From Candidatus Aminicenantes bacterium UBA6228 (GTDB lineage Bacteria > Acidobacteriota > Aminicenantia > Aminicenantales > Saccharicenantaceae), in assembly GCA_002441005.1 (NCBI GenBank), contig DJWO01000014.1:328130-392129 (forward strand): a stretch of DNA of 64,000 nucleotides, in the 5' to 3' direction. The notes beneath the pieces were generated by a model. It saw only the letters and a list, made by a program, of their open reading frames with translations, was not told where the DNA came from and made no database searches. Below, piece by piece: positions 3,876 to 52,940 of the stretch (its first letter is position 1; the number at the start of each line of letters is the position of its first letter). Position numbers and translations under genes: made by a program.

Positions 3876-4673
3876 TTAGATAACTTTGGGATACATGACA
3901 GCCCCGATCAGAACCAGGATAATGGTGATGGCCGCCAGCACTCCCAGATCAAACCCAATTTGATAGGTGCCTGTTCCACCGACCAGCATCAATTGTCTCA
4001 GGATGTCAACTTCATAGGTCAAGGGATTAAGATGAGAAACGACTTGAAGCCAGGAAGGCATAATGGAAATCGGATAGATGGCGTTACTGGCAAAAAATAG
4101 CGGCATGGTTAAGACCTGTCCCAGGCCCATAAAGCGCTCCCTCGTTTTAACGATGCAGGCAATGATCAGGGAAAAGGTTGAAAAAAGAGCAGAACCAAGA
4201 ACAACGGCCAGAGCTACGCCAAGCAAAGACAGCAGATTGAAGTTCAAATGGACGCCGAGCAAAAGTGCGATGACGACGACAATCAGGCCCTGAGCCAGCC
4301 CTCTTACCCCAGCCGATAAGGCTTTTCCCAGTACCAGAGCCGCCCGCGGCGTTGGACTGACTAAAAACTTATGGACGACCCCCAGATCCTTTTCCCAGAT
4401 GATAGATATTCCATAGAAAATAGCGATGAACAAAACACTCTGAGCCAGAATGCCAGGCGTCATAAAATCAAGGTAAGGCAAATTCCCGGTAGGTATAGCC
4501 CTGACCCGGGTAAAGACCTGGCCGAAGACGAGCAACCACAGGGCAGGTTGAACCGCCCGGGTAAGAAGCTCGGTTGGATCGTGTCGCAGCTTTCTCATTT
4601 CCAGTTCAGCTAAAACTAAGGTTTTATTGCTGAAAGAATAGATTTGTTGGAATAATGATCTGAAAAACTTCAT
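3876..4673 (-). CDS. ABC-2 type transporter permease
   Basis: 265 aa with six predicted TM helices. It is translationally coupled downstream of the ABC ATPase. The topology is ABC-2 family. Confidence 0.7.
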   Translation of the reverse strand: MKFFRSLFQQIYSFSNKTLVLAELEMRKLRHDPTELLTRAVQPALWLLVFGQVFTRVRAIPTGNLPYLDFMTPGILAQSVLFIAIFYGISIIWEKDLGVVHKFLVSPTPRAALVLGKALSAGVRGLAQGLIVVVIALLLGVHLNFNLLSLLGVALAVVLGSALFSTFSLIIACIVKTRERFMGLGQVLTMPLFFASNAIYPISIMPSWLQVVSHLNPLTYEVDILRQLMLVGGTGTYQIGFDLGVLAAITIILVLIGAVMYPKVI

Positions 4674-4742
4674 GTTTTACTCCTGGACTACCGGGCTGCT
4701 ACACTCCTCGGCTCCTGGCTTCTATGATCCTGGCGGGTTTCC

Positions 4743-5543
4743 TCAACCTAAGCGCCGGGCGACGCGCCTCGTTCTGGATATATCTCGAAAGTTTCCGCCA
4801 TTATCCAGCTCGTTCCCGGTATAATGGATAAAAACATCATCAAGCGTCACTTCCTCACCCCGTCCGACTGCTGTTTTTAATTCCTGGGGAGAGCCCAGGG
4901 CAGCCATCTGTCCCAGGTGCATGATAGCTACGCGGCTACAAAGCTCATCTGCTTCATCCATGAGATGAGTGGTCAGAAAAATCGTCGTTCCAAACTGCTG
5001 ACGAAGATTTATGATGTGTTCCCAGACCGTACGCCTTGCCGCCGGGTCGAGCCCGATGGTTGGTTCATCCAGGAAAAGAACGCGCGGGTGGTGGAGCATT
5101 GACTGGGCAATTTCCAGCCGCCGTATCATGCCACCAGAATAGTGCCGAACAAGCTTATCAGCCACTTCCTCCAGACCCATGTAACGCAAAGCCTGTCTGA
5201 CCCGTTCTTCACGTTCCTGACGCGGAACATCATAGAGCCTGGCAAAAATCATTAAATTTTCATAACCGGTCAAAGTGCCGTCAGCCGAAATTAATTGTGG
5301 AACATAACCAATCATTTTTCTCACCCGGGCCGCCTGATGGCGAACGTCAAAACCAGCAACCATCGCCTGGCCAGACGTTGGCGGAAGCAGTGTGGTCAGT
5401 ATTTTTATGGTCGTTGTCTTACCGGCACCATTTGGACCCAGCAATCCAAAAATTTCACCCTCATCAATGGTAAGAGACAGGCGGTTGACAGCCAGGAGCT
5501 CGCCGAAGCGCCTGGTTAAATCTCTTGTTTCAATAATCTTCAT
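4743..5543 (-). CDS. ABC transporter ATP-binding protein
   Basis: Walker A (GPNGAGKTT), the ABC signature (YSGGMIRRLEIAQS) and Walker B (LFLDEPT) are all present. Confidence 0.92.
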   Translation of the reverse strand: MKIIETRDLTRRFGELLAVNRLSLTIDEGEIFGLLGPNGAGKTTTIKILTTLLPPTSGQAMVAGFDVRHQAARVRKMIGYVPQLISADGTLTGYENLMIFARLYDVPRQEREERVRQALRYMGLEEVADKLVRHYSGGMIRRLEIAQSMLHHPRVLFLDEPTIGLDPAARRTVWEHIINLRQQFGTTIFLTTHLMDEADELCSRVAIMHLGQMAALGSPQELKTAVGRGEEVTLDDVFIHYTGNELDNGGNFRDISRTRRVARRLG

Positions 5544-6037
5544 AGCAGTCGTCCTTTTGGTCTCGAATCTCGTTTTTCTTTATGGGATCGATCAGAGGTC
5601 TTCGGAAAGACCAGAGCCTCGAGCAGTAACTCGAAACCCTCATCAATCTTCTGGATTTCTATCGGAGGCAAGTAGTCGAGATGCTCTTGAAGGTTTTTGA
5701 GCGTCGCTTTTTCAGCCAAGGTCAACAGTTTCATGCCCTGGTGGCTCAAATGAAGCTCAATCTGCCGCCTGTCTTCCAGGCCCGATTCCCTGACTATCAA
5801 ACCGCGTCTGACCAGATTATCAACCATTCGGGAAGCCGTGGCCAGGGATAATCCATGGTGAGCAGCCAGAGCTGAGAGCGAGGCCCGCGAGTGGCGACGG
5901 CAAAAAAGAAGTGTGCGAAACTGAGCCAGAGACAGATCTGGCTGGCGGTACTGCCTCATGTTCGACCGGATATAGCCCATCAGTCTGGGTATTCCTTCCA
6001 TAAGCCTGACTGCCAATTCTTCAATCTTATCATCCAT
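5540..6037 (-). CDS. MarR-family transcriptional regulator
   Basis: 165 aa with a winged-helix core (LSLAQFRTLLFCRRH...SLSALAAHHGLSLATASRMVDNLVRRGLIVR). It is the first gene of the marR-ABC-ABC operon and overlaps the ATPase start by 4 bp. Confidence 0.8.
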   Translation of the reverse strand: MDDKIEELAVRLMEGIPRLMGYIRSNMRQYRQPDLSLAQFRTLLFCRRHSRASLSALAAHHGLSLATASRMVDNLVRRGLIVRESGLEDRRQIELHLSHQGMKLLTLAEKATLKNLQEHLDYLPPIEIQKIDEGFELLLEALVFPKTSDRSHKEKRDSRPKGRLL

Positions 6038-6333: not shown

Positions 6334-8502
6334 TTAACGGGCGATGACCAGCATTTCGCCACCCACCAGGTTGACAGCCCGGCCCTGCACTCCGAGGACC
6401 TGAATTGAGGAGATGCCTACTCTGGTCTCGCCTGCCCCCAGGACTTCAAAAACCAGCGTGGCCAGATTGCCGCTATTTACACCTTTAGCCGGATCCGGTG
6501 ACGAAAAGCCTATTACGGCCAGCCCCGAAGAAGCACTTATATCCTGGAGAAAAGAGCCTTTATCACCAAACTGGCTGACCAGGTCCCCTCTCTGAATTTC
6601 TTTAAGTCTCAACACTTTAGAGTCGTAATTAACATTCAGAGACAAAGACGTTATATCCACTGGCGAATTGACGGCTAATCTGACATTTAATGTATAGCCC
6701 ACCGGCACTTCCGACCGCTCGGGTAACAGCGACACTGTTCCCATCTGGGCACCAGCTTCGGCCGCCTCCTCTGCCGGGACTTCCACTCCGGCTTCAACTG
6801 GAGGTATGGTTTCTTCACCGCCGCCAGCAGCCGTCTGCGTTTGCGTCGTAAAGCTTGAGCCGGCATTATCGATCCACAGCGGCTCACTGTCTTCAGCCTT
6901 TAAAGGCATTGTCCTGATAATATGCGGAGTTATGGTCAGGATCACATCAGTCTGGTCAACTGTCCGGTCAGCACTCGAAAAAAGGCTGCCCAGAATAGGG
7001 ATATTTTTCAGGCCAGTCACTCCCTTCAGAGATTTCCGCTCCTCATCCTTGAGTAACCCGGCCAGTAAATTGGTTTCGCCATCCTTGAGTCTGATCACAT
7101 TCTTGACCGACCGGGTAGAAATAATGGGAATATCGGCGATTCCCGTACCACTGATGGCTGTGATTTTGACTTCCATTTCCAGACTGACTTCATTTTCCTG
7201 ATGCAACCTTGGTTTGATATTCACTCCAATGCCAACATCCTGATACTGATAGGAAACCATTGGCTGCTGGCTGATACCGCCGGCAGCAATTGGATTAAAG
7301 GTTGTACTTGGAATTGGTACTTGCTGACCAACCAGATAATTTATTTCCTCGCTGTCAACTCCCCTCAGCCTTGGCTGGGCGATAATTTTTGTATCCGAAT
7401 CAGTCTCTATAAACTGAAGAAGAACCGAAGGCAGGGTTATCTGAAAATTTTCTGATTTGGAAAGATCAAAACCCTCGAGAGGCAGCCAGCCGTCGGTTGG
7501 GATTTCGCTCACCCCACCCGTATATCTGATGGACCCATAGCTCTGGCTGAACTGCGTGCCGATAGTTTGCAGTCTTGTTCTGGAGACTTCCATGATCTCC
7601 AGATCGATAATTACCTCGCCCTTAGGCTTATCCCAGGACTGAAGCAGTTTCTCGGCCAGGGCCACGACCGTTGCCGTGTCTCTGATGGTCAGCGAATTTC
7701 TTGTTTTGTCAACAATAATGCTGGGGCCTTTATACTGAGTCCGCAGGATAGAAGCCAGCTGATTTTGCACGTCCTGGGCATTTATGTTAGAGAGGTAGAT
7801 AGTTTTAATGGCATTGACTTCATATTGATTTCGTTTTTGCGGGTTGTCAGGAATGATGATCGCCGTTCGCTCATCCATCACCCGGTAGAAAGTCCGCCCG
7901 GTCAGGCAGAGTGAGTTAATAGCCTGTTCGACAGTTAGATCAGTCAGATCAATCGAAACAGGCAGATCACGGAACTGCTCGTCAAACAAAAAGTTGATCC
8001 CGCTGAACTTTCCCAGAGCCTGGAAAATCGCCCGCAAAGAAGCATCGGTAAATTTCAGTTTCAGTAATTCGGGCGGGTATTTTAATTTTACTGGAGCTTC
8101 AATCACCACTTCTTTGGGCTTGACTTCAACGGCTGGCTTGATACCGGCCAATTCTTTATACTCAGCCAGAATCATCCTGTTGGTTGGATCATAAAACAGG
8201 GCCTTTTTATATTGATTAAGAGCCTCATCTTTCATTCCTCCCGCCGCCAGGCGCCTGGCCCTTTCAGCCGCATCCAGCGCTGCCACGGCCTTCGTCCGGA
8301 AGAGAGCCAGCCGGTAAACTGACTCTTTAGGATTTTCCAGCATCGCCTGCTCATAGTATTTAATGGCCTCATCATAATTCTTATTGATCTCGGCCTGATA
8401 ACCGAGCTTATAGGACTGGGTAAAAGTAGAACAACCAAGTATATTTATGATTAAGAAGCCAAGAAAAAGCCAGCTGATTTTTCCCGGTCTGATTTTAGTC
8501 AT
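6334..8502 (-). CDS. pilQ: Type IV pilus secretin PilQ (type II/III secretion secretin family) with an N-terminal lipobox-TPR module and a C-terminal cohesin-like domain
   Basis: 722 aa. A lipoprotein signal (LGCS) and TPR-like helices come first. Secretin N-domains and the secretin core follow (...GVTGLKNIPILGSLFS...ILTITPHII). A Gly/Ala/Glu-rich linker then leads to a roughly 135-aa C-terminal beta-sandwich (LSLNVNYDSKVLRL...GNLATLVFEVLGAGETRVGI) that resembles cohesin domains. Confidence 0.8.
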   Translation of the reverse strand: MTKIRPGKISWLFLGFLIINILGCSTFTQSYKLGYQAEINKNYDEAIKYYEQAMLENPKESVYRLALFRTKAVAALDAAERARRLAAGGMKDEALNQYKKALFYDPTNRMILAEYKELAGIKPAVEVKPKEVVIEAPVKLKYPPELLKLKFTDASLRAIFQALGKFSGINFLFDEQFRDLPVSIDLTDLTVEQAINSLCLTGRTFYRVMDERTAIIIPDNPQKRNQYEVNAIKTIYLSNINAQDVQNQLASILRTQYKGPSIIVDKTRNSLTIRDTATVVALAEKLLQSWDKPKGEVIIDLEIMEVSRTRLQTIGTQFSQSYGSIRYTGGVSEIPTDGWLPLEGFDLSKSENFQITLPSVLLQFIETDSDTKIIAQPRLRGVDSEEINYLVGQQVPIPSTTFNPIAAGGISQQPMVSYQYQDVGIGVNIKPRLHQENEVSLEMEVKITAISGTGIADIPIISTRSVKNVIRLKDGETNLLAGLLKDEERKSLKGVTGLKNIPILGSLFSSADRTVDQTDVILTITPHIIRTMPLKAEDSEPLWIDNAGSSFTTQTQTAAGGGEETIPPVEAGVEVPAEEAAEAGAQMGTVSLLPERSEVPVGYTLNVRLAVNSPVDITSLSLNVNYDSKVLRLKEIQRGDLVSQFGDKGSFLQDISASSGLAVIGFSSPDPAKGVNSGNLATLVFEVLGAGETRVGISSIQVLGVQGRAVNLVGGEMLVIAR

Positions 8503-9112
8503 CGGTATTCTCCTTTACCTTAATCTTCCTGGAGTTGCCCTGGCTGTCTTTAATCAATATCTCCCCGGGAGTGATTTTAACCAGTTTGAGACCAGGAATA
8601 ATCTCCTCCCCCTCAGTCAGAGCCAAGGCCTGGCCATCAATCAAAATCAGGGCCAGAGCCTTCTGCCCCGAAAAAATAAGGCCGCTATATATAAAATTTA
8701 GGCTTTCGAGAAGCGAAGTATTTTGTTGTCCGGCCAGAAGCTCATTATCTGATATTTGAAACTCTGGTCTTTCATCCATAATCTCTTCTCCGGCCATCTC
8801 TCCTCCCTCGATGGCCGCTCTGTCCTGGGCAGCATTAAGCGACGAGGGCCGGAAAAGATCTCTTCGGGCCACGGCCAGGTCCGGATTTAATTGAGGTAAT
8901 TGATTTTTTTTCAACAAAGAAGAGACCGGGGGAGAAGAAGCCTTTCCCGCCCGGCCAGGCTCCTGGCTTTCCTGCTCCTGATTTGACTGCCCGGCTAAGA
9001 GCGAACAGGACATTATGATCAGAATGCTCAGATTGATAGAAACCAGTGCTGAAGGCTTAAACGGCCAGCGTCTCACTACCTTGAGCCTGCCACCAACAGC
9101 TTTATTTTTCAT
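8495..9112 (-). CDS. pilP: PilP-like pilus assembly lipoprotein
   Basis: The position between pilO and pilQ fits PilP. The C-terminal region (ALALILIDGQALALTEGEEIIPGLKLVKITPGEILIKD) resembles the PilP fold. The N-terminus is hydrophobic. Confidence 0.45.
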   Translation of the reverse strand: MKNKAVGGRLKVVRRWPFKPSALVSINLSILIIMSCSLLAGQSNQEQESQEPGRAGKASSPPVSSLLKKNQLPQLNPDLAVARRDLFRPSSLNAAQDRAAIEGGEMAGEEIMDERPEFQISDNELLAGQQNTSLLESLNFIYSGLIFSGQKALALILIDGQALALTEGEEIIPGLKLVKITPGEILIKDSQGNSRKIKVKENTDD

Positions 9113-9683
9113 AATAATACCCCGCCACGGTTAGCCTTAAATCAACCAATCCTGACAGGTTATCTATTTTCTGAAAATTGATCTGGTCAAGGAGCCAGAT
9201 TCTCGGCCAGCTCTCCAGTTCATACATAAATTTCTTTAACATGGGGTAAGAAAGGGACAGCCCGAAAGAAGCCGACAGCCGGCGGAATTCCTTTTTTTGA
9301 TCTTCCTCATATTGATAGCTTATAGCCGGCACAGGTCTACCTGCTTTTTGAAAAAGCTGGGTCAAATCCTGACGAAAGGTATCCATTCCTCCCTGTCCGG
9401 CATAAAACCAGGTCTTCTTAATTTCAGCCAGGTCGGTTTGCGTCTCCTGCCAGGATTTCAATTCAGCCAGCGTTTCCTCTGTTCTGACTGCCAGCTTATC
9501 CACTTCCGACTGAAGAGCCAGGGCCTGTTCTCTCAGTCCATCCAGCCTTCTGGCCCAGAAGAAAAGCGTTATGATCAATAAGCCGAACATCACTAAACCG
9601 GTTAGACTAATCCTCTTGAGGAATTTTCTTTCCTTTTCAGTCAACTGTTCACTTAGTTTCGGCATATTGAAAATCCATTTCAA
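9102..9683 (-). CDS. pilO: PilO-like inner-membrane pilus assembly protein
   Basis: 193 aa with a single TM helix followed by a coiled-coil. Gene order is pilM-pilN-pilO-pilP-pilQ. Confidence 0.55.
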   Translation of the reverse strand: MKWIFNMPKLSEQLTEKERKFLKRISLTGLVMFGLLIITLFFWARRLDGLREQALALQSEVDKLAVRTEETLAELKSWQETQTDLAEIKKTWFYAGQGGMDTFRQDLTQLFQKAGRPVPAISYQYEEDQKKEFRRLSASFGLSLSYPMLKKFMYELESWPRIWLLDQINFQKIDNLSGLVDLRLTVAGYYYEK

Positions 9684-10224
9684 CCTGCAATTCCCCGGCT
9701 GCGAAGTCTTCGCTTAAAACCCGTATTTGACTGTATCCACGGCTGGCCAGATTTTTAATGAGCTGGCTCAGATCAGCTCTACTGGCCAGTCCGGCTTTTA
9801 TTCTAAATTCAAAACCAGCTTCATTCCGGCTCGGATTTAAATTGACCAGATAAGCGCCCGCCGGCAAAGCCTGTTCCAGATTATCAAAAAAGATTGTCCA
9901 CGAAAAAGATTTCCTGGCCAGCAAAGTATTGACTTCATCTACAGCTGTTTTCAACTGCTTTTTTAAATTATCCGTTTCCCGGGTTAGCTGATTGTGTTGA
10001 GAAGAGATAACTGACTTTTCATCAGCCAGACGCTGGTAGCTGGTCTCCATTACCCGGTCAAGGGAAAAATTCTTAATATTTAACACTATCAATAGAATCA
10101 ATAAGATCCCGGTCAGCACTCCCCCTCCAACACTCAGAAACCGGAAAGCCCTTAAATTCCGGCGGGGCTGGCTGGCCAGATTAATAATAAGATCCCAGCC
10201 GGCCTGATTTTCTTTAGCCAGCAT
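9649..10224 (-). CDS. pilN: PilN-like pilus assembly protein
   Basis: 191 aa with an N-terminal TM anchor and a coiled-coil. Its start overlaps the pilM stop (10224), which fits the PilM-binding partner. Confidence 0.6.
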   Translation of the reverse strand: MLAKENQAGWDLIINLASQPRRNLRAFRFLSVGGGVLTGILLILLIVLNIKNFSLDRVMETSYQRLADEKSVISSQHNQLTRETDNLKKQLKTAVDEVNTLLARKSFSWTIFFDNLEQALPAGAYLVNLNPSRNEAGFEFRIKAGLASRADLSQLIKNLASRGYSQIRVLSEDFAAGELQVEMDFQYAETK

Positions 10225-11111
10225 TATTGCCCTCCAAGGAGCGGCGCCAACCTGGGATACTCAGGATATAATTCGGCAATTTCAACGCCGGTAGTCTGTT
10301 CAATCGTCCCGATTAAGCTGGTTGTTTCAGGTAAGCCCGATCTGAGAAAAATTACCTGTGGTTTTTTCTTATTTTTACTCTCAATAAACTGAATAGTATT
10401 TTCAACTTCATTAAGAATCTGGCTATCCAGGCCGGCTGCTTCTGGCCAGAGGGGCTTCTGGCGGTAAATAGACAATACCTGGCCGGCTACTCCCACCAGA
10501 CTGAGATAATCATAGTCGGCATCGATCAAAAGATAATCCGCGACTTCTTTCCCATTCAGCAAACTCAGAAGTGAAATAGAAGGAATAGTAACCTTGCCAG
10601 GCTGCAGTTTCTTCTGGCGGAAAATTTCTTCATAATCTCTGACGACAGCCAGCCCGGAACAAACCGCTAAAACTTTCTTCCCGTCTTGTGAATCAAATGT
10701 TTGATAGGAATAGCGAAGACCGGCTAGCGGTTGAGCCAGAGCTTTTTCCAGACGCCACTCAATAAATTTTGTCAAATCATTTCCAGATAACGAGCCATTT
10801 TCCGCTGAAAAAATTAAAGCCCTGGCACTTATTTCCGGCAAAACTATTGAAATTGAATTTCCAGCCGGTTTCAGCTGATTTATAGACTGATCAATAAGCT
10901 CTTCAATTACTGCCGGTTGTTTAATATTCGGTTGTAACCAGTTGGCTTCAATCACCCCTTCTGGCAGGCGAGCCTCGAAATATGATTTTTCACTTCCCCT
11001 GGCAGTGGCTCCAGGCCGGAAGCAGGCAAAAAATGACGGAGAAAGCTGGAAAACAGCCGAGGGGACGGGCGGCTCGAAGAAGAATTTTTGCCAGCGGTTA
11101 AAAATGCTCAT
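10224..11111 (-). CDS. pilM: Type IV pilus assembly protein PilM (actin-like ATPase fold)
   Basis: 295 aa with a PilM/FtsA-like fold. It is the first of the MNOPQ genes. Confidence 0.7.
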   Translation of the reverse strand: MSIFNRWQKFFFEPPVPSAVFQLSPSFFACFRPGATARGSEKSYFEARLPEGVIEANWLQPNIKQPAVIEELIDQSINQLKPAGNSISIVLPEISARALIFSAENGSLSGNDLTKFIEWRLEKALAQPLAGLRYSYQTFDSQDGKKVLAVCSGLAVVRDYEEIFRQKKLQPGKVTIPSISLLSLLNGKEVADYLLIDADYDYLSLVGVAGQVLSIYRQKPLWPEAAGLDSQILNEVENTIQFIESKNKKKPQVIFLRSGLPETTSLIGTIEQTTGVEIAELYPEYPRLAPLLGGQ

Positions 11112-11114
11112 TGG

Positions 11115-12725
11115 CTACTCAACAAAGGTCACCTTATTCAAATCCTTCAGGCTGGTCACGCCGGAGAAAAGCTTCTCCAGCCCTGACTGCCGGATAGGAA
11201 CCATACCTTCTGACTCAGCCAGTTTCCTCACCTCAGACAGAGGTTTTCGAACCAGAATCATTTCCCGGATTTCATCCGAAAGTTCCAGCAATTCAGCAAT
11301 AGCCGTTCTTCCCCGGTATCCAGTCTGGTGGCATTCCGGGCAGCCCCGGGGCTCATAAAAGACCTGGTTTCTGTATTTTTCAGGTGACAGGCCGGAGAGC
11401 TCCAGCGTTAAATCATCATACTGGACAGGAGCCTTGCACTTGGGACATAAGACCCGCACCAGCCGTTGAGCCAGAATGCAATTAAGAGACGAAATAAAGC
11501 TATAGGGATCAACATGCATATGTAGGAACCGGCCAATGACATCAAAAACATTATTGGCGTGAACAGTGGTAAAGACCAGATGCCCGGTCAGGGCTGACTG
11601 GATGGCAATCTGAGCTGTTTCCGGGTCGCGAATTTCGCCCACCATGATTTTGTCCGGGTCATGGCGAAGAATTGATCTTAAGCCACGCTCGAAAGTCAGG
11701 CCTTTCTTCTCATTGACCTGAATCTGAGTGATACCCTCAATTTGATATTCAACCGGATCTTCAATGGTGACAATCTTATCTTCAGGCGATTTGATCTCGG
11801 TTAAAGCTGCATAGAGAGTGGTGGTTTTCCCGCTGCCGGTCGGGCCGGTGACCAGGATCATCCCATAAGGCTGGACGATATACCGCCTGAATTTTCTTAG
11901 AATTTCATCAGAAAAGCCAAGCAAATCAAGCCTCAACTCGGCAAAAGCTTCGGTGATCATTTCCTTATCGAGGATTCTGATGACGGCGTCTTCGCCATAA
12001 ATACAAGGCATAATCGAAACCCGGAAATCAATCGTTTTATCTTTAATTTTGAGCCGGAACCGGCCATCCTGGGGCACCCGCCGCTCGGAAATGTCCAGGT
12101 CAGACATAATTTTTATCCTGGAAATAATCAGCGATTGAAATTGCCGGTCAATAGGTTCCATGGCTTCAGTCAAAACACCATCGATCCTGAATTTTATCCG
12201 GACAACATTCTCTTTCGACTCGATATGAATATCACTAGCCCTTTTTTGAACGGCAGTAAAAATGATGGTATTGACCAGTTTGATGATCGAGCCATCCTGT
12301 TCGGTGAGTTTCTCAATGGTAATAACGTCCTCTTCTTCGCCACTCTCCTTTTCTACCACCTGGTGAATAAAACCCTCAGTTGCTTCTTTGAGGACCTGAG
12401 AAGCCGTCTCGCTGCGCCGCAGGGCTTCCTGTACAGCTCTCAGGCTGGCGGCATAGACCGCCACCTTCCGGCTGAAAAAAGTCTCAATGCTGTCAATGGC
12501 TGCCAGATCGGAGGGATCGGCCATGGCTATTTTTAAGACCCGGCCATCATCCTCCAGAGGCACAAAATTATAGTGATACAAAAAATCAACTGGAAAAGAT
12601 TGAACCAGCTCCCGGTTTAGTTCAAAACTCCCCAGGTCAAGATAATTAACATGATATTTTTCGGCCAGGCGCCTGGCTTCATTTTCTTCGGCCTGAAGCA
12701 ACCCGTCAATGTCGCCTTTGGTCAC
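11115..12725 (-). CDS. pilB: Type IV pilus assembly ATPase PilB (GspE family) with an N-terminal GspE-N domain
   Basis: 536 aa. Walker A (GPTGSGKTT), Asp and His boxes, and a tetracysteine motif (CPKC...CPEC) are present. Confidence 0.92.
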   Translation of the reverse strand: MTKGDIDGLLQAEENEARRLAEKYHVNYLDLGSFELNRELVQSFPVDFLYHYNFVPLEDDGRVLKIAMADPSDLAAIDSIETFFSRKVAVYAASLRAVQEALRRSETASQVLKEATEGFIHQVVEKESGEEEDVITIEKLTEQDGSIIKLVNTIIFTAVQKRASDIHIESKENVVRIKFRIDGVLTEAMEPIDRQFQSLIISRIKIMSDLDISERRVPQDGRFRLKIKDKTIDFRVSIMPCIYGEDAVIRILDKEMITEAFAELRLDLLGFSDEILRKFRRYIVQPYGMILVTGPTGSGKTTTLYAALTEIKSPEDKIVTIEDPVEYQIEGITQIQVNEKKGLTFERGLRSILRHDPDKIMVGEIRDPETAQIAIQSALTGHLVFTTVHANNVFDVIGRFLHMHVDPYSFISSLNCILAQRLVRVLCPKCKAPVQYDDLTLELSGLSPEKYRNQVFYEPRGCPECHQTGYRGRTAIAELLELSDEIREMILVRKPLSEVRKLAESEGMVPIRQSGLEKLFSGVTSLKDLNKVTFVE

Positions 12726-12741: not shown

Positions 12742-13944
12742 TTACCTGGTTATTCTAACGATATTAAAAATTGGCAAATAAATCGAAAGAATCATCACCG
12801 CTGCCACTAGTCCGATAAAAATGATGATCACCGGCTCGATCAGAGAAACCAGCGTTTGTATTTTATCGCGCAAAGCCTGATCATAAAAATCAGCCACTTC
12901 ACTTAACATGCCGGGCAAATTAGCCGAGCTTTCACCAATCCGGATCATATCGGTGGCCAGAGGCGGAAAAATTCCAGCACTGGCCAGAGAATCATAAAGA
13001 CTCTGCCCGCTGGTCAGTTTTTCTGCCACCGTTTCGAGCCTGGAGGAAATATAGCGGTTAGTCACGGCCAGCCTGGCCACATTGACCGAGGGGACCAGAG
13101 TAATGCCGGCTTCCAGCAGCAACCCGAGAGTCCGGCTGTAAAGAGACACAGCTGAATCCTGAACTAAATAACGAGAGTAAGGCAGATGAAGTTTCAGCCG
13201 GTCATTCAAAATCATAAACTCCGGCCGGCGGCGCAAACTAATTATGGCCAGGACGATTACTATCACCAACAGCACCAGCCAGAGCAGGTTTTTCTGCAAA
13301 AAGGTAGCCAGAGAGATTAAGCCCCTGGTTATAGCCGGCAGTTGAGCCCCAAAATCAGCATAAAAAGAAGCAAATCTGGGCAAAACTAAAACGACCAGAA
13401 TGCCAATCAGGATTAGCGAAAATATGATCAGCAGAGTTGGATAGAGAAGTGCTGACCGGACCCTGGTGCGGGTTTGCGTTATGACTTGAGCATATTCGAG
13501 GTAACGCTTGATCGACCCGGGAAGGTTGCCGCTTCTTTCCCCGGCCAGGAGAGAAGCTGTATAAACCTTGGAAAACAGGTGTTCGTAGGGAGAAAAAGCT
13601 TCCGACAGCGTCCGGCCTTTTCTGATTTCCTCCTCCACCTGGCCGACAATTTCCCTCAGGTAGGGATTTTCAATTCTTTTTTCCATCAGTTCCAGGCTCT
13701 TTAGGACCGGATAGCCAGCTTTGAGCATAGCCACCAGTTCCTGATTAAAAAGAATAAACTCCTGCTGCTTGATTTTGCGGCGAGATAAACGAAGGCGGCC
13801 GAGACTTATTTCTTTCCGGATAGACAGGACATAGAGCCCCTCCGCTTCCAGATGTTTACGGCATTCAGCTGGCGAGGCGGCCCTGATTGTTTCCCTGACA
13901 ATTCGCCCCTCAGGAGTTATAAGACGGCAGAAATAACCAGGCAT
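12742..13944 (-). CDS. pilC: Type IV pilus inner-membrane platform protein PilC (GspF family)
   Basis: 400 aa with two GspF repeats and three TM segments. It is the first gene of the operon. Confidence 0.9.
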   Translation of the reverse strand: MPGYFCRLITPEGRIVRETIRAASPAECRKHLEAEGLYVLSIRKEISLGRLRLSRRKIKQQEFILFNQELVAMLKAGYPVLKSLELMEKRIENPYLREIVGQVEEEIRKGRTLSEAFSPYEHLFSKVYTASLLAGERSGNLPGSIKRYLEYAQVITQTRTRVRSALLYPTLLIIFSLILIGILVVLVLPRFASFYADFGAQLPAITRGLISLATFLQKNLLWLVLLVIVIVLAIISLRRRPEFMILNDRLKLHLPYSRYLVQDSAVSLYSRTLGLLLEAGITLVPSVNVARLAVTNRYISSRLETVAEKLTSGQSLYDSLASAGIFPPLATDMIRIGESSANLPGMLSEVADFYDQALRDKIQTLVSLIEPVIIIFIGLVAAVMILSIYLPIFNIVRITR

Positions 13945-14238: not shown

Positions 14239-15507
14239 ATGGGAACATCTAACGACAGATCAAAGGTGGATGCGACCTTCCCGTTAAGGTTGAGAGCAGC
14301 CCGTTTGAAGGCCGGCCTTAGTCTCGAGGACCTGGCCTGCAAGCTCGGGGGAATAGTCAGCCGCCAGGCCATTGCCAAGTATGAAAAGGGCCTGGCCGCC
14401 CCATCTCCCGAAGTCCTTGAACACCTCCTCCAGGTCCTCGAGATCCCGGCTCCACCTGAAGAGGTCACTTCTTTAAGTTGTTTCACAGATAATTTTAGAG
14501 CTCGAAATGTTTCTTATAAAAGAAAAAGTAATACTGCCAGGCAAGACCTCAACTTGAAAAAAACCGGGGCTGACAACCAGCTAGCTGAAGACAAAAAGCT
14601 GGAGTGGTTGGAACCGACTCGGGTTTATTTTTGCCTCAATAGACAGGACCTTCAGCCGGCCAACATTCAAAAGGATAAGGAAAAAGAATCATTTATCTTC
14701 CGCTGCGGTTTGAAGCTTAGCTCGAAACAACTTACTGCCCTGAGAGTCCAGATCGCAGAAAAGATGGAAAAATATCTCCGTCTTGAATCGCTGCTTAAGG
14801 CAGAACTTAAGTTCACGGTTGGATTGAGCAATTCTTCCCTTGCCAACCCTGACCAAACTGAACAGGCTGCCGGGGAATTACGCCAGCTCTGGGATCTGGG
14901 AACTGGCCCGGTAGTCAATATTCTAACTTTTCTTGAAGACCGGGGAATAAAAATTTTTAGGTTAGCCGGTCCGGAAGGTTTTGAAAGCTGTTCTGGATTC
15001 TATCTTGACTCACCTTTTATTGCCGTCAATGACAACCTGCCGGTTGACCGGCTAAGATTTAAAACCTCAACTGAGCTGGCTCAGATTTTATTTGGTTTCT
15101 CTGAAGATCCAGCGCAGTCGAAACTCTATAACCGCTGGGCGGCGGCTTTTTTAATGCCGGCCAGGAAGCTCGAAGAATATTTTTTGCCGGCTGGCCGGAA
15201 AATTGCCCTGAGTGAGCTGGCCGAAATAAAATTGCGCTATGGAATTTCTTTGCAGGCCATCATGTACCGGGCTTATGATCTTGGCCTGATAACCGAGCGG
15301 CGGTTAAGAGCCTTTAGAGAATTGCTCAATCAAAAAGGCTGGCTGACTAAAGAACCAGTGGCTTACCGGGGCGAAGAGTTCCCTCAGCGGTTTAAAAGAC
15401 TGATTCATTATGCTATCTCCTCAGAAATTCTTGACCTTAAAACAGCCGCTTCTTTGGCCGAAACTACGCCGGAAGATTTGTGCCAGGAGATTGGAGACAT
15501 TTTTTAA
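14239..15507 (+). CDS. XRE-family HTH protein fused to a degenerate ImmA/IrrE-type (M78-like) metallopeptidase domain that lacks the HExxH motif
   Basis: The N-terminus is a classic HTH_XRE (LRAARLKAGLSLEDLACKLGGIVSRQAIAKYEKG). The C-terminal region has ImmA/IrrE-family hallmarks (YNRWAAAFLMPARKLEEYF; LAEIKLRYGISLQAIMYRAYDLGLI). At the position of the family's Zn-binding HExxH the sequence is STELAQ (...RLRFKTSTELAQILFG...), so both catalytic His residues are absent. Confidence 0.65.
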   Translation: MGTSNDRSKVDATFPLRLRAARLKAGLSLEDLACKLGGIVSRQAIAKYEKGLAAPSPEVLEHLLQVLEIPAPPEEVTSLSCFTDNFRARNVSYKRKSNTARQDLNLKKTGADNQLAEDKKLEWLEPTRVYFCLNRQDLQPANIQKDKEKESFIFRCGLKLSSKQLTALRVQIAEKMEKYLRLESLLKAELKFTVGLSNSSLANPDQTEQAAGELRQLWDLGTGPVVNILTFLEDRGIKIFRLAGPEGFESCSGFYLDSPFIAVNDNLPVDRLRFKTSTELAQILFGFSEDPAQSKLYNRWAAAFLMPARKLEEYFLPAGRKIALSELAEIKLRYGISLQAIMYRAYDLGLITERRLRAFRELLNQKGWLTKEPVAYRGEEFPQRFKRLIHYAISSEILDLKTAASLAETTPEDLCQEIGDIF

Positions 15508-15657
15508 CCGGGCCGGGGCCCTGATTACCCTGGCTGTCAGGTTAGAGGGGAGTTGATGATGGGTTTTATTTTGAACATTCCGCCTTAGCGAAAGAGACAG
15601 GAACAGGGGAAATTGACTTAATTTATCAGGTCTTTTTTTGGAAAGAAGGAGTCTATT

Positions 15658-17470: not shown

Positions 17471-20320
17471 ATGAAGAGATCTTCTGGTTTTTATTTTTTC
17501 CTGTTAAGCGTGACTCTCCTGACTGTTCTTGGCTTCATCAATATCTCCCGCAAACTGGCCTGGAAAGAACCATACGACGGAGTTATCTGGGCAGAGGGAT
17601 CGAATGGCCTGATTGCTGAAAAAGTCTCCGAAAACAGCCCGGCCTATCTGTCGGGCATCAAGCCTGGCGATATTCTCTTCTCCATCAATAGCACTCCGAT
17701 CAGGAACCGGATTGAATACGTTAAAATGCTCTGGGTGCTGGATCGCCTGGAACAAAAGGCACTCTATCAGATAGGAAGAGAAGGGACCATCCTGGCTCCT
17801 TCGTTCTATTTAGAAAAAAAGGGAGTCAGCTCAAGCTATGTTTATCTGATGCTGCTCGGATTAACCACTCTGGCCATCAGCCTGATTGTTTTCATCAATT
17901 CCAGAAGGAAATTTTCCAGTCTCTATCTGTTTTTTTACCTGGTTTTGCTATCTCTATATTCATTCTATGTCTTTTCTCCAACTGGCCAGATGGATTCGCT
18001 TGACCAGATATTTTTCTGGCTGGATAAAATAGCCATTATTGCTTTCCCTCCTCTTCTTTTAAATTTCTTCTTTATCTTCCCCCAAAAAAAAGAGATCATT
18101 GCTCATCCCGGGGTTCTGGCCCTGTTCTATCTTCCCGGTTCTATCTTGCTTTTGGCTAATATCTGCCTGGTAGCCGTCTTTCAGTCAAAACTGGGTGACG
18201 CCCAGATACTGAATTACCAGAGAATTCTGGACAAGGGTGAGTTATTTCACCTGGCCACTTATAGCCTTATAGCCCTGTTCATGATCATTTACGATGCCAT
18301 CAGTACCAGGAACCTTTATATCAAAAACCAGCTTAAGTGGATAGCTGGAGGCCTGGGGCTGGGAGCCTTGCCTTTTTCTATCTTTTATATTCTACCTTTC
18401 CTGCGAAATGCCCTGCCGTCATCAGCCGGCCAGCTCAGTGTACTTTTTCAGATTTTTGTGCCGGTCACTCTGGCTTATTCAATTTCCCGTTACCGGTTAA
18501 TGGACTTTGAGGTTCTGGTTAAAAAGGGCTTGACTCTGATTATTTCCTTCACTCTGATCGCCCTGGTCTATTTTCTGGTCAGCTCTCAAACTGAGTTGTT
18601 CTCAGAAAACAGGCTAAATGCCATTTTACTTGGTTTGCTGGCTATCATCCTGGGAGCAACTCTTTTCACTCCTCTATCAGAAATGGTTCAGACTCTGGTT
18701 GACCGGGTAATTTACAGGCGAAGTTATGAATACCGCCGGACTTTGCTGCTTATTTCGAGCCAGCTAAACCGGGAAAGAGATCTTAACCGCCTGGTCAGCT
18801 ATCTGGTTGAAACTATATCGAAGGCGCTTTCCCTGAAAAGCCTGGGGCTTTTTCTGGCGCGAGAAGAGCGGCCAGACGAGTTTTACCTTCTTCGGGCGGC
18901 AGGGGAACCTTATCTGACTTTGCCTGTTGTGCAGTTAAGTCCGGCCGAAAGTCAGGAGCTACAAAAAACGGAGTTTATATCTTTCTTGCCTGGAACTGAA
19001 ACGCCGGCTCTGGCTGGTATTTTTACTTCTCTTAAGGATAAAGGGTTCAATAACTTCTTGCCTCTCAAGCTGGAGAACAGAATAATTGGTTTTCTGGCTC
19101 TCGGGGATAAAATTGACGGTTCTTTTCTTTCGGGTGAAGACCGGGAACTTCTCCGGACAATTTCGCCTTCCGTTACTTTAGCCTTGGAAAATGCCTATCT
19201 CTATAACCAGGAAATTATCCGCTCCCAGGAACTGCAACGTCTTAAAGATTATAGCGATAACATTATCGAGAGCCTGACCGTGGGTGTGGCCGTCATTGAT
19301 GAGAGTGGACTGGTCACCGGCTGGAACCGGGTCCTGGAACAGCAGTTTGGCCTGAGCCGTTCTCAGGCTTTAAACCGCCATCTATCTGAGGTTATTGGTT
19401 TAGAGAACTTCCAGGCTATTTTTCCTCCAGAAACCCAGGCAGAATACCAGCTGCTGAGCGAAATTACTCTGACCACCGCCCCCGGCCAGAAAAAAATCTT
19501 TGATGTGGCCAGAACACCTTTGCTTGATAACCATTTCCGGGCCTATGGGACCATTATCGTTTTTGAAGATATAACTGAGAAAATCGGGCTGCAGCAGCAA
19601 ATGGTGACCTCCGAAAAACTGGCTTCTATTGGCCTGCTCTCGGCCGGCGTCGCTCATGAGATTAACACCCCGCTGACCGGTATTTCCAGCTATGTCCAGA
19701 TACTTCAAAAAAAACTGACTGAAACTAACTATCTTCAGATCCTGAAAAAGATAGAAGATCAAACTGACCGGGTCAGCAAGATAGTCAAAAACCTGCTGAG
19801 CTTTTCCCGCAATCCCGCCGACCTGGCCTTCCACCGGATTGACCTCAAAGAGAGCCTCGAAGAAATTATTTCTCTCATTGACTACCGGCTAAAAAGCTTG
19901 AATATTAACCTTTCCCTGGACTTAAAGCCAGTCATCATTTACGCCCAGAGAGAAAGGCTCCAACAGGTTTTTATTAATATCATTCTTAATGCTCTGGATG
20001 CTATGCCGGGCGGCGGGCAGCTGACCATCCAGACCAGACAGCAGGAAGCCCGGGCCATAATCAAAATAACTGATACCGGCCTGGGCATCAAGCCTGAACA
20101 TTTGCCCAGAATTTTTGACCCATTTTTTACCACCAAAGGAATAGGCAAAGGGACAGGCCTGGGTCTGTCCATCAGCTTTGCCATTGTCAAAGAACACGAA
20201 GGGCAAATCCTGGTAGACAGCCAGGTTGGTCAGGGGACAACTTTTACCATCATTTTGCCGGCCAACCTGTCCGAAAAAAACTTAAGGCCAGCTAATCCAG
20301 GAGGAATTGGTCATGAATGA
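17471..20320 (+). CDS. Sensor histidine kinase: N-terminal TM helix, periplasmic PDZ-like domain, multi-pass membrane module, GAF, PAS, HisKA and HATPase_c
   Basis: 949 aa. PDZ-like segment: GIKPGDILFSINSTPI. At least 8 hydrophobic helices follow. H-box: SAGVAHEINTPL. N, G1 and G2 boxes: NIILNALDAM, DTGLGI, GKGTGLGLSIS. A promoter-like TTGATT-17-TATATT lies at 17420-17448. Confidence 0.85.
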   Translation: MKRSSGFYFFLLSVTLLTVLGFINISRKLAWKEPYDGVIWAEGSNGLIAEKVSENSPAYLSGIKPGDILFSINSTPIRNRIEYVKMLWVLDRLEQKALYQIGREGTILAPSFYLEKKGVSSSYVYLMLLGLTTLAISLIVFINSRRKFSSLYLFFYLVLLSLYSFYVFSPTGQMDSLDQIFFWLDKIAIIAFPPLLLNFFFIFPQKKEIIAHPGVLALFYLPGSILLLANICLVAVFQSKLGDAQILNYQRILDKGELFHLATYSLIALFMIIYDAISTRNLYIKNQLKWIAGGLGLGALPFSIFYILPFLRNALPSSAGQLSVLFQIFVPVTLAYSISRYRLMDFEVLVKKGLTLIISFTLIALVYFLVSSQTELFSENRLNAILLGLLAIILGATLFTPLSEMVQTLVDRVIYRRSYEYRRTLLLISSQLNRERDLNRLVSYLVETISKALSLKSLGLFLAREERPDEFYLLRAAGEPYLTLPVVQLSPAESQELQKTEFISFLPGTETPALAGIFTSLKDKGFNNFLPLKLENRIIGFLALGDKIDGSFLSGEDRELLRTISPSVTLALENAYLYNQEIIRSQELQRLKDYSDNIIESLTVGVAVIDESGLVTGWNRVLEQQFGLSRSQALNRHLSEVIGLENFQAIFPPETQAEYQLLSEITLTTAPGQKKIFDVARTPLLDNHFRAYGTIIVFEDITEKIGLQQQMVTSEKLASIGLLSAGVAHEINTPLTGISSYVQILQKKLTETNYLQILKKIEDQTDRVSKIVKNLLSFSRNPADLAFHRIDLKESLEEIISLIDYRLKSLNINLSLDLKPVIIYAQRERLQQVFINIILNALDAMPGGGQLTIQTRQQEARAIIKITDTGLGIKPEHLPRIFDPFFTTKGIGKGTGLGLSISFAIVKEHEGQILVDSQVGQGTTFTIILPANLSEKNLRPANPGGIGHE

Positions 20321-21698
20321 AAATACTAAAATCACAATTCATGTCATCGACGATGAGCCCATAATTCATGATGTTCTGGGTCAGCTTCTTCAGTCTGAGG
20401 GCTACCAGGTCGAAATTTCTGCTTCCGGAGAAGAAGCCCTGCCCAAGCTTCAGCACCGGAAATTTGATCTGACGCTTCTTGATCTGTTAATGCCAGGCCT
20501 CGATGGCCTGGAGGTCTTAAAGCAGATAAAAAGAATTGACCCGGAGGCCCTGGTGATAATCATCACCGCCTATGCCTCAGTTGAATCAGCTTTAACTGCT
20601 ATGAAAATGGGGGCCTATGATTATATCCAGAAGCCGTTCAAAAATGATGAACTCCTGATGACTATTTCCCGGGCTCTGGAACATCGCCGCTTGCAGCTCG
20701 AAAATATCAGGCTTCAGGATGAACTGAAAAAGAAATTTAGCTTTGAAAATATCATCGGTAAAAGCCGGCCGATGCTAAACGTTTTTGAACTCATTAAGGC
20801 GGCTGCTCCGACCCGCTCGACCCTGCTAATTCAAGGGGAAAGTGGGACAGGGAAAGAGCTGGTAGCCAGAGCTATCCATACCAATTCAGACCGGGCTGGC
20901 CATCCGTTTGTCGTAGTTAACAGCGGATCGCTCCCGCCCGATCTTCTGGAAAGCCATCTTTTTGGTCATGTTAAGGGAGCTTTCACTGGAGCCGTGGTTG
21001 ACAAGAAGGGGCTATTTGAAGCTGCCGACCGCGGAACAATATTCTTTGACGAAATCTCTTCTATCAGCCTTGAAACTCAGGTCAAGTTACTGCGGGTCAT
21101 GCAGGACAGGGAGTTTATGCGCCTGGGCGGGACCAAAACCATCAGAGTTGATGTCAGAATTATTGCCGCCACCAACACTGACCTGGAAGAACTGATCGAA
21201 CAAAAGGCCTTTCGTAAGGATCTTTATTACCGGCTGAATGTCATCAAAATTGAACTGCCTCCGCTCCGGGCCAGAAAAGAAGACATTCCCCTTCTGGTCA
21301 GGCATTTCATAGACATCTATAAACAGGAAAATAATAAGGACATTGAAGGGGTCAGCGAAGAAGTGATGGAAATCCTGATGGATTACGACTGGCCGGGAAA
21401 TGTCCGCGAGCTGGAAAATGTGCTGGAGCGGGCGGTGGTTTTAAGCCGGTCAAAGATAATAACCAGAGAAGCCTTGCCAGCTTTTTTGACTGATGTTAGC
21501 CGGTCGGCTTTCAAGGAACTGGGAGAGGATAGTCTGAATTTAAGACAACGAACCCTTGACTATCAGAAACAGCTTATTTTAACCGCTCTGAAAAAATCAA
21601 ATGGCATTCAGAAACAAGCAGCCAGCCTGCTCGGCTTAAAACCGACCACCCTGAATGAAATGATCAAGCGCCTGAAAATTGATATCGAATCAGCCTGA
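20307..21698 (+). CDS. Sigma-54-dependent response regulator (NtrC family: REC + AAA+ sigma-54 activator + Fis-type HTH)
   Basis: Receiver motifs DLTLLDLLMPGLDG; Walker A GESGTGKE; sigma-54 contact motif GAFTGA; C-terminal HTH. Its start overlaps the histidine kinase stop. Confidence 0.92.
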   Translation: MVMNENTKITIHVIDDEPIIHDVLGQLLQSEGYQVEISASGEEALPKLQHRKFDLTLLDLLMPGLDGLEVLKQIKRIDPEALVIIITAYASVESALTAMKMGAYDYIQKPFKNDELLMTISRALEHRRLQLENIRLQDELKKKFSFENIIGKSRPMLNVFELIKAAAPTRSTLLIQGESGTGKELVARAIHTNSDRAGHPFVVVNSGSLPPDLLESHLFGHVKGAFTGAVVDKKGLFEAADRGTIFFDEISSISLETQVKLLRVMQDREFMRLGGTKTIRVDVRIIAATNTDLEELIEQKAFRKDLYYRLNVIKIELPPLRARKEDIPLLVRHFIDIYKQENNKDIEGVSEEVMEILMDYDWPGNVRELENVLERAVVLSRSKIITREALPAFLTDVSRSAFKELGEDSLNLRQRTLDYQKQLILTALKKSNGIQKQAASLLGLKPTTLNEMIKRLKIDIESA

Positions 21699-41000: not shown

Positions 41001-41146
41001 GCCTAATAGCGGTTGATTTTTTCCCCGGGATGTATTATAAAGATTCTTACTCCGAGTCGGCTAAGCTAAAGCCAGCGGCCAGGCTGACCGACCGTCAGGG
41101 TAAAGCCGGAAACGGTTTTGCCTCCCAGTTGGAAAGGAGAATTAAG

Positions 41147-52871: not shown

Positions 52872-52918
52872 AAAGAGGGGAGGCGCTTCTTGAAAGTGCC
52901 TCCCCTCTTTTCTCTTTA
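52872..52918 (+). terminator. Rho-independent terminator (stem AAGAGGGGAGGC / GCCTCCCCTCTT, then a T-rich run)
   Basis: Seen directly in the sequence, 20 bp after the receptor stop. Confidence 0.7.
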
Positions 52919-52940
52919 TTATCAAGCCAGGAAGACAGCA

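Follow-up and report, generated by a model that had tools for sequence, protein, structure and literature searches.

A secretin subfamily of the Acidobacteriota with an N-terminal TPR domain and a C-terminally tethered cohesin-fold domain

Secretin targeting and assembly and the recognition of type II cargo are known mainly from Proteobacteria, where separate pilotins bind a helical S-domain of the secretin. The Acidobacteriota are among the most abundant bacteria of soils and sediments and, to our knowledge, their envelope machines are essentially unstudied. Nearly all secretins need a pilotin, the known exception being the liposecretin HxcQ (PMC12475490). In HxcQ of Pseudomonas aeruginosa the secretin bears its own lipoprotein signal, and a linker separates this signal from N0 (Viarre et al. 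2009, cited in PMC12475490). TPR-repeat lipoproteins that act on the outer-membrane secretin are PilF, PilW and Tgl in T4aP systems and TadD in Tad systems (PMC10653833, PMC10499894).

We identified a 722-aa protein encoded by ORF 6334-8502 (-) in a 64-kb window (the whole stretch of DNA that was analysed). From N- to C-terminus it consists of a lipobox signal peptide, a TPR domain, N0, N1, a secretin core, an acidic linker and a cohesin (Table 1). An earlier sequence-only reading had described it as a tripartite secretin. All of the strings that this reading relied on were recovered in the ORF (the lipobox "...NILGCS", "LSLNVNYDSKVLRL", "GNLATLVFEVLGAGETRVGI" and the Gly/Ala/Glu linker), and Pfam, AF2 and Foldseek bear out the folds it proposed: TPR helices behind a lipobox at the N-terminus, the secretin core, and a cohesin fold at the C-terminus, reached through a flexible linker. 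It had omitted N0 and N1, both of which are present by Pfam and AF2 and bring the number of parts above three; the TPR domain replaces the AMIN domains alone, and N0 and N1 are kept. The layout of an outer-membrane secretin with a TPR front, predicted to be lipid-anchored, and a cohesin-fold module tethered to its tail is genuine.

Table 1. Positions in the window of the domains of the secretin and of the neighbouring genes.
Feature	Position	Strand	Residues and description	Evidence
Signal peptide and lipobox	8431..8502	-	1-24, ...NILG-C24	Read from sequence
Small TPR-like helical domain	8146..8418	-	29-119, five helices	Pfam TPR_2, TPR_1 and TPR_11 matches
Linker 1	8056..8145	-	120-149, low confidence, variable	pLDDT about 52-55 (AF2)
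N0 domain	7822..8055	-	150-227	Pfam FecR_C (STN/N0-like) match at 148-216
N1 domain (Secretin_N)	7627..7812	-	231-292	Pfam PF03958, AF2 model
Secretin core including conserved "PLW" tail	6874..7617	-	296-543	Pfam PF00263, phmmer, Foldseek
Linker 2	6745..6870	-	545-586, about 42 aa, disordered, Gly/Ala/Glu/Pro-rich	pLDDT 27-43 (AF2)
Cohesin-fold C-terminal domain	6337..6741	-	588-722	Pfam PF00963, AF2, Foldseek
PilP-like ORF	8495..9112	-	205 aa	Gene order and sequence pattern only
PilO/GspM-like ORF	9102..9683	-	193 aa	Weak T2SSM_b match; weak NCBIfam GspM match, E 1e-4, below cut-off
PilN-like ORF	9649..10224	-	191 aa, one TM segment and coiled coil	Position only; conserved in related locus L003
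PilM-like ORF	10224..11111	-	295 aa	Position only; conserved in related locus L003
PilB/GspE-type assembly ATPase	11115..12725	-	MshEN N-domain	Pfam T2SSE 445.7 bits, MshEN 67 bits
PilC/GspF platform protein	12742..13944	-	First gene of the operon	Pfam T2SSF twice
PDZ-GAF-PAS histidine kinase and sigma-54 response regulator	17471..21698	+	PilS/PilR-like pair	Pfam

The N0, N1 and secretin domains are of the kind found in PilQ/GspD-type channels. Secretin_N (PF03958) matched residues 233-294 with 41.6 bits (cut-off 28.2), and Secretin (PF00263) matched residues 365-530 with 114.5 bits (cut-off 27.5), covering profile positions 2-169 of 169. In the AF2 model N0 follows a beta-alpha-beta-beta-alpha-beta-beta pattern, and the alignment to PilQ begins at residue 146 of the protein. 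P541, L542 and W543 are conserved in alignment A1. Searches of the PDB with phmmer matched 21 secretin chains, including GspD and PilQ cryo-EM chains. The full-length AF2 model, whose pTM of 0.40 gives no usable inter-domain geometry, found PilQ (6w6m) as its best Foldseek match, with GspD (5zdh) also among the top matches. The best NCBIfam match of the secretin is GspD (TIGR02517), at 147.5 bits versus a cut-off of 351.35, and PilQ (TIGR02515) scores 109.5 versus 284.35; both scores fall below the cut-offs, which points to a distinct subfamily. In the phmmer matches to PDB structures the secretin match stops at query residue 531, which aligns to residue 587 of the 646-aa ETEC GspD (5zdh) and to residue 588 of the 650-aa V. 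cholerae GspD (5wq8). The C-terminal remainder of these two GspD chains is the S-domain. The match to PilQ (4av2) reaches within 7 residues of the chain end.

The C-terminal domain has the nine-stranded beta-sandwich (jelly-roll) of cohesins by AF2 and Foldseek. Cohesin PF00963 matched residues 597-700 with 46.8 bits (cut-off 24.1, E 4e-12), and the isolated C-terminal 148 aa scored 49.9 bits against the same profile. An AF2 model of these 148 aa is all-beta (mean pLDDT 92.5, pTM 0.84), and cohesins account for 50/50 of the Foldseek matches listed against the PDB, with TM-scores of 0.65 to 0.79; the structures matched include 2xdh (top match, E 1.7e-11), 6kgf, 4dh2 and 1aoh. The domain borders in the full-length AF2 model (residues 588-722, nt 6337-6741) fit the place where the sequence-only reading had put the cohesin. 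A GspD-type helical S-domain was considered for the C-terminus and rejected: after the secretin core the AF2 model has only a 4-residue helix (536-539), then the disordered linker and the beta-sandwich. Profile search and structure prediction thus both return a cohesin fold and no ordinary S-domain.

The cohesin is kept in all lineages: members of the Aminicenantes-type group share 47% identity in this domain, and the figure between classes is 25%. These values, which suggest selection on the domain, are similar to those of TPR, N0 and N1 and well above those of linker 2, the least conserved segment of the protein (25% within the Aminicenantes-type group, 12% between classes). Linker 2 is acidic and 31-51 aa long in the Aminicenantes type, and Pro/Ala-rich and 61-133 aa long in the Terriglobia type. 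The cohesin positions that are conserved across the phylum are mostly Gly or hydrophobic and therefore look structural; no conserved polar binding patch is evident among these positions.

At the N-terminus, Cys24 is predicted to be lipidated. C24 is invariant in alignment A1. In 119/119 full-length Aminicenantes-type homologues a [G/A/S]-Cys stands where the h-region ends, no further in than residue 45; this is the signal expected of a liposecretin, although positions -2 and -4 are non-canonical. The lipobox Cys is found in 0/119 Terriglobia-type proteins. The predicted lipid anchor is lineage-specific, confined to some lineages. Because the Terriglobia type lacks the lipobox, the lipid-anchor part does not generalise, and the TPR domain cannot act as a "fused pilotin" throughout the family. 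The TPR domain comprises only about 2.5 repeats. TPR_2 matched residues 31-59 with 28.2 bits (Pfam cut-off 27), and the AF2 model has helices at 29-39, 43-56, 61-87, 91-104 and 109-119 with a pLDDT of about 90. A phmmer search of the TPR domain against the PDB returned generic or designed TPR proteins only, with no specific similarity to a pilotin. Linker 1, which follows, has an identity of 41% within the Aminicenantes-type group. A separate TPR gene at one related locus (L001) was considered as a natural split, which would have favoured a pilotin origin, and was set aside as a 1-nt frameshift relative to the fused relatives.

The same layout was found in thousands of database proteins and in at least 584 stretches of GTDB species genomes (Aminicenantes, Bryobacterales, Solibacter, Terriglobia and Acidoferrales); the search for related loci was built on an alignment of five sequences (A4). 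The arrangement is not rare: it defines a secretin subfamily spread across the Acidobacteriota, and TPR and cohesin always occur together on one chain across the phylum. The sequence-only reading had been aware of no description of the arrangement. This stands insofar as no paper describing a secretin-cohesin fusion was found in full-text literature searches, the survey of non-cellulosomal cohesins lying outside their coverage; it does not stand for the databases, where this phylum-wide family is already annotated automatically by NCBI as "cohesin domain-containing protein".

A type IV filament operon ends with the secretin gene; before it come, in order, the genes for a platform protein and a PilB/GspE ATPase and then four small ORFs resembling PilM, PilN, PilO and PilP. 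A promoter-like site lies beside the platform protein gene at 14004-13976 (-). In NCBIfam the ATPase scores 548 bits for PilB and 539 bits for GspE, both below the cut-offs, and the platform protein scores 280 bits for GspF and 263 bits for PilC. Pfam and NCBIfam gave no match for the PilP-like and PilM-like ORFs and no significant family match for the PilN-like ORF. The PilP-like ORF shares 8 nt with the start of the secretin gene, may carry a lipobox (IIMS-C), and has a homologue at the same position in the related locus L003. L003 contains the same operon with the same PilS/PilR-like pair directly adjoining, a synteny that suggests a regulatory link of the pair to the operon. No pilin gene emerged when the window was scanned by regex for GFTLIE-type prepilin motifs. 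At Terriglobia-type loci, two GspG-like prepilin genes come after the secretin gene in 75-76 of about 80 cases.

The explanation that we favour, with about an even chance of being right as a whole, is that the protein is a type IV filament secretin with a lipidated TPR head and a periplasmic cohesin crown that docks a partner. It would serve an Aminicenantes ("Candidatus Saccharicenans") bacterium as outer-membrane secretin, in a machine that is either a type IV pilus or akin to type II secretion. The lipidated TPR head would anchor each subunit to the inner leaflet of the outer membrane and would act in cis in the manner of the TPR lipoprotein pilotins (PilF/PilW/Tgl/TadD) and of the lipid anchor of the liposecretin HxcQ. 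Tether and cohesin would begin exactly at the start of the GspD S-domain, and because the linker starts there, the cohesin should lie next to the barrel on the periplasmic side rather than at the exposed mouth of the channel. A periplasmic location is likewise what the homologous structures suggest, and the alignment to GspD structures, which puts the linker at the periplasmic S-domain position, speaks against the earlier idea of docking at the outer-membrane channel. In a ring of roughly 12-15 subunits the cohesins would form a periplasmic crown around the exterior of the barrel. This crown would be a protein-docking module, for which the candidate partners are an accessory or pilotin-like protein, a neighbouring subunit or TPR domain, and cargo. 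That the cohesin ring is a dedicated station recruiting a dockerin-like or tagged partner (a pilotin substitute, an accessory ring or secretion cargo) we consider unlikely.

A rival model along the lines of the sequence-only reading has the cohesin displayed at or outside the outer-membrane channel, where it would capture dockerin-tagged proteins such as secreted enzymes and form a cellulosome-like platform. The domain is truly homologous to cohesins, among its nearest solved structures are type I and type II cohesins that bind dockerins as well as the non-cellulosomal cohesin of A. fulgidus, and the Pro/Ala-rich tethers of the Terriglobia type, of up to 133 aa, resemble scaffoldin linkers. 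However, the C-terminus of the secretin core is periplasmic in the solved GspD and PilQ complexes, and the tether starts at the S-domain position. Docking of dockerin-tagged partners is also unsupported by the searches: no dockerin-like calcium loops or Ca-loop pairs were found in the 64-kb window, no dockerin-like modules were found within 10 kb of 83 related loci (1.4 Mb), and Dockerin_1 is absent from the Pfam matches to the scanned window ORFs. No glycoside hydrolase cluster appeared among the Pfam matches to the window ORFs scanned, which left out a few at the right end. With one cohesin per chain and no dockerins nearby, the protein does not look like a cellulosome-type scaffoldin. The nearest non-secretin relatives of the cohesin are multi-cohesin proteins of other phyla (e.g. 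Desantisbacteria and Clostridia); these were considered as evidence for a cohesin-dockerin system in this organism and, belonging to other phyla, provide none. We regard capture of dockerin-tagged proteins at the channel as quite improbable.

A structural role without a dedicated dockerin-type ligand is a possibility of some weight, though a doubtful one: the cohesin may clamp the ring through the TPR head or a neighbouring subunit, or may space the secretin or anchor it to the cell wall. It agrees with the constant pairing of TPR and cohesin on one chain across the phylum, with the mainly structural nature of the conserved cohesin positions and with the lack of dockerins near related loci, and cohesins reportedly occur without dockerins in many organisms. 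A disordered, poorly conserved tether of 31-133 residues would nevertheless be an odd design for a fixed clamp, and AF2 gives no confident packing between the domains (pTM 0.40). In a T2SS-like machine the periplasmic cohesin could also act as a receptor, bringing folded cargo, or else pilins or pseudopilins, to the vestibule of the secretin. The two GspG-like prepilin genes at Terriglobia-type loci and the rank of GspD as best NCBIfam match fit such a receptor, but we judge it very improbable, since all family scores lie under the cut-offs, the protein has N0 and one N1 only, as in PilQ, no recognisably tagged protein turned up as candidate cargo, and the cohesin would sit outside the barrel rather than in the vestibule. 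An artefact, in which a chimeric contig or read-through joined a secretin gene to a separate cohesin gene, is effectively refuted: more than 100 independent assemblies carry the same uninterrupted architecture, with 50-100% identity, and a distant second clade has it too. Nothing specific speaks for it, as the frameshift at L001 splits the TPR off and fuses nothing.

The best reading is therefore a distinct secretin subfamily with a predicted built-in periplasmic protein-docking module. A TPR head in place of AMIN, combined with a tethered cohesin at the S-domain position, suggests a different solution to secretin assembly. If the docking station is real, it would be a modular "plug-in" for secretin assembly or substrate selection, conserved across the phylum and not known from the type II secretion and type IV pilus systems that have been studied. 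The cohesin domain is small and expected to be soluble, and could serve as bait for its partner. If the cohesin turns out to have no partner, the correction of the annotation stays useful: these "cohesin domain-containing proteins" are secretins, not parts of cellulosomes.

Among described systems, PilQ (V. cholerae 6W6M, P. aeruginosa 6VE2, N. meningitidis 4AV2) shares with this protein the N0 domain, a single N1 and the secretin core, and the gene likewise ends a pilM/N/O/P-like string. It differs from PilQ in having a lipobox and TPR head instead of AMIN domains, and in its C-terminal tether and cohesin, whereas PilQ stops right after the core. GspD (ETEC GspD-AspS 5ZDH, PulD-PulS 6HCG) also has an extra C-terminal module at the pilotin-binding S-domain position, but there the module is a helix-turn-helix S-domain, whereas here a disordered tether carries a beta-sandwich cohesin of 135 aa; GspD moreover has N1-N3 where this protein has one N1 domain.

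With HxcQ the protein shares an N-terminal lipoprotein signal on the secretin itself and a linker before N0, the lipidation being predicted here, and this signal suggests self-piloting without a separate pilotin. We know of no TPR domain and no cohesin in HxcQ. TPR repeats on a lipoprotein that acts on the secretin are also what PilF, PilW, Tgl and TadD provide, but these are separate polypeptides with more repeats, unlike the about 2.5 repeats fused in cis here; compared with these TPR lipoprotein pilotins, the Terriglobia-type relatives keep the TPR and lack the lipobox. Like the non-cellulosomal cohesins of Archaeoglobus fulgidus (2XDH) and C. perfringens (2JH2), the domain is a single cohesin on a host protein unrelated to cellulose degradation; unlike them, its host is the outer-membrane secretin of a diderm bacterium.

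The minus-strand ORF at 6334-8502 encodes a 722-aa secretin of the PilQ/GspD type, part of a type IV filament machine, with a TPR domain at its head and a cohesin at its tail. All sequence strings cited in the sequence-only reading were found in this ORF ('...NILGCS', the Gly/Ala/Glu linker, LSLNVNYDSKVLRL and GNLATLVFEVLGAGETRVGI). That reading described a tripartite secretin; Pfam and a full-length model (mean pLDDT 75.8, pTM 0.40) recovered its TPR, core and cohesin parts, but it had overlooked the N0 and N1 domains. The Pfam domain placement is far beyond chance. NCBIfam scores are 147.5 for GspD and 109.5 for PilQ, both far under the curated cut-offs, and the protein represents a separate secretin subfamily.

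Features of the secretin-cohesin protein and of its gene neighbourhoods
Feature	Position	Strand	Basis or remark
PilC/GspF platform protein	12742-13944	minus	first operon gene
PilB/GspE ATPase with MshEN domain	11115-12725	minus	
Four small ORFs		minus	PilM, PilN, PilO, PilP positions in operon
TPR_2	residues 31-59		Pfam, 28.2 bits
FecR_C match, N0-like	residues 148-216		Pfam
Secretin_N	residues 233-294		Pfam, 41.6 bits
Secretin	residues 365-530		Pfam, 114.5 bits
Cohesin PF00963	residues 597-700		Pfam, 46.8 bits (gathering score 24.1), E 4e-12
Signal-peptide helix, then Cys24	residues 6-23		full-length model
TPR-like, five helices	residues 29-119		full-length model, pLDDT about 90
First linker, low confidence	residues 120-149		full-length model
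N0	residues 150-227		full-length model
N1	residues 231-292		full-length model
Secretin core, then short conserved 'PLW' segment	residues 296-530 (core)		full-length model
Second linker, disordered	residues 545-586		full-length model, pLDDT 27-43
Cohesin	residues 588-722		full-length model
Two GspG-like prepilin genes	L002 (related locus) 4364-5213		equivalent position in about 75 other loci (L004-L083)

We modelled the C-terminal 148 residues with AlphaFold2 from an 86-sequence alignment and obtained an all-beta domain with a mean pLDDT of 92.5. When this model was compared with the PDB by Foldseek, cohesins made up 50/50 of the matches listed (TM-scores 0.65 to 0.79), the first being 2xdh (E 1.7e-11), the Archaeoglobus fulgidus cohesin, which is non-cellulosomal, and the next being cellulosomal cohesins of types I and II. 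Because the matches listed are all cohesins, the domain has the cohesin fold originally proposed and not that of an S-domain or another common fold. Cohesin positions conserved across Acidobacteriota are mostly structural.

The phmmer secretin alignment stops at query residue 531. Its counterparts are residue 587 in ETEC GspD (646 aa) and residue 588 in V. cholerae GspD (650 aa); in both chains, everything beyond is the pilotin-binding S-domain. In PilQ, the phmmer match extends to within 7 residues of the chain end. As the secretin match ends where the GspD S-domain begins, the tether and cohesin appear to take its place. Solved GspD-pilotin complexes have the S-domain in the periplasm, outside the barrel and beneath the outer membrane, and on that basis we expect 12-15 tethered cohesins to form a periplasmic crown that would serve as a protein-docking module.

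The sequence-only reading had dockerin-tagged partners docking on the cohesin at the outer-membrane channel. Taken as a surface-exposed, cellulosome-like platform, this is quite improbable, being at odds with secretin topology and with the absence of nearby dockerins: no dockerin-like calcium-binding loop was seen anywhere in the 64-kb window, nor did 1.4 Mb of sequence surrounding 83 related loci yield any dockerin-like motif. The closest multi-cohesin proteins belong to other phyla. A purely structural clamp or spacer is plausible, though ill-matched to the long disordered tether, and in the Terriglobia loci the cohesin is possibly a receptor of cargo or pseudopilins. There the gene lies outside any pilMNOP-like string; a divergent smpB flanks it in Terriglobia and Bryobacterales, and the two small GspG-like prepilin genes come after it in 75-76 of about 80 loci. 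The gene context of the family thus varies between classes.

A whole-protein search in which 8000 candidates were scored yielded 1674 relatives, the best 120 of which are nearly all 700-725 aa with identical Pfam architecture, under names including 'cohesin domain-containing protein [Candidatus Saccharicenans sp.]', 'Candidatus Aminicenantes' and JGI 'general secretion pathway protein D'. With the cohesin domain as sole query, an exhaustive search gave 480 cluster representatives; custom domain HMMs identified about 25 of the top 150 as secretin-cohesin proteins or fragments of them, including a distant second group whose members are 760-910 aa long. A profile of this group matched 5556 proteins (source names Candidatus Solibacter, Acidoferrales and Acidobacteria), and a scan of GTDB species genomes gave at least 584 confirmed stretches, the best 80 from Bryobacterales, Solibacter, Terriglobia, Acidobacteriaceae and Acidoferrum. 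In the best 120 of both the whole-protein and second-group profile searches, Secretin is present in all and TPR in all but a few, and proteins without a Pfam cohesin match show unchanged length. The many independent assemblies with the fusion exclude an assembly artefact. Identity between the Aminicenantes-type and Terriglobia-type clades is similar over every folded domain (TPR 28%, N0 27%, N1 26%, secretin 31%, cohesin 25%) and far lower in the linkers (12-13%), a pattern arguing that the whole architecture is old and vertically inherited and that the cohesin domain is under purifying selection.

The lipobox Cys occurs in 119/119 Aminicenantes-type and 0/119 Terriglobia-type sequences. The second linker also differs: it is acidic and 31-51 aa long in the Aminicenantes type, Pro/Ala-rich and 61-133 aa long in the Terriglobia type. 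In the Aminicenantes lineage, the predicted lipobox would have Cys24 acylated and the protein carried to the outer membrane. The precedent for a liposecretin that pilots itself is HxcQ (PMC12475490), and PilQ and RcpA usually have TPR lipoproteins as their pilotins, namely PilF/PilW/Tgl and TadD (PMC12475490; see also PMC10653833, PMC10499894); by this reasoning the TPR head may act like a pilotin in cis. Since Terriglobia retain the TPR without the lipid, the TPR would also have to have an additional, lipid-independent role. In related locus L001, the TPR part stands as its own 168-aa ORF (9525-10060), which overlaps the secretin-cohesin gene; the DNA reveals a 1-nt frameshift relative to fused relatives, and the split is a sequencing error or pseudogene rather than natural. 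About 45 kb from the secretin, a separate gene (53823-54791, minus) encodes a 322-aa protein with a CarboxypepD_reg-like beta-sandwich and several strong TPR repeats.

The secretin-cohesin gene is the final gene of a minus-strand operon with a promoter-like site upstream of its first gene. The PilO-position ORF has a weak GspM match. The PilP-position ORF (8495-9112, minus) overlaps the secretin start by 8 nt and is recognised by no Pfam or NCBIfam model; its possible lipobox (…IIMS-C), long low-complexity region and C-terminal segment, beta-rich by eye, presumably resemble the layout of PilP lipoproteins. No pilin gene was found anywhere in the 64-kb window, where Pfam matches of ORFs are over most of its length chiefly to housekeeping functions, several ORFs having none. 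Near the operon are genes for a PDZ-GAF-PAS histidine kinase and a sigma-54 response regulator. Between the operon and these PilS/R-like genes, at 14239-16734 (plus), are an HTH_3 plus Peptidase_M78 (ImmA/IrrE-like) protein and, after it, an ARPP-1 family protein (PF20208, 288 bits); since in the related genome L003 the two-component genes directly adjoin the operon, with one 77-aa ORF between, the pair has the look of an insertion, a module of the conflict or defence type. On the other side, a MarR regulator, ABC transporter ATPase and permease (3876-6037, minus) separate the secretin from ThiS/aldehyde-ferredoxin-oxidoreductase genes; L003 has an NTPase_1 gene there, so this set is a local gene replacement. 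Adjoining TonB-dependent receptor-like genes (41030-43087 and 49993-52851) are an 818-aa ORF (44687-47143, minus) with no Pfam match at E <= 1e-3 and ORFs of 348 aa (43126-44172, plus) and 300 aa (52890-53792, plus) with none at 1e-4.

The components, secretin, TPR, lipobox and cohesin, are all of known kinds, and databases already auto-annotate the domains of these proteins. Literature searches found no paper describing the fusion; the survey of Peer et al. 2009 might list one. The architecture is found across Acidobacteriota, a major, poorly studied phylum, and the protein gives a means of testing how secretins are assembled there. When the whole model was searched with Foldseek, PilQ (6w6m) ranked first, GspD structures second and cohesins third; compared with classical PilQ, the TPR head replaces only the AMIN domains.
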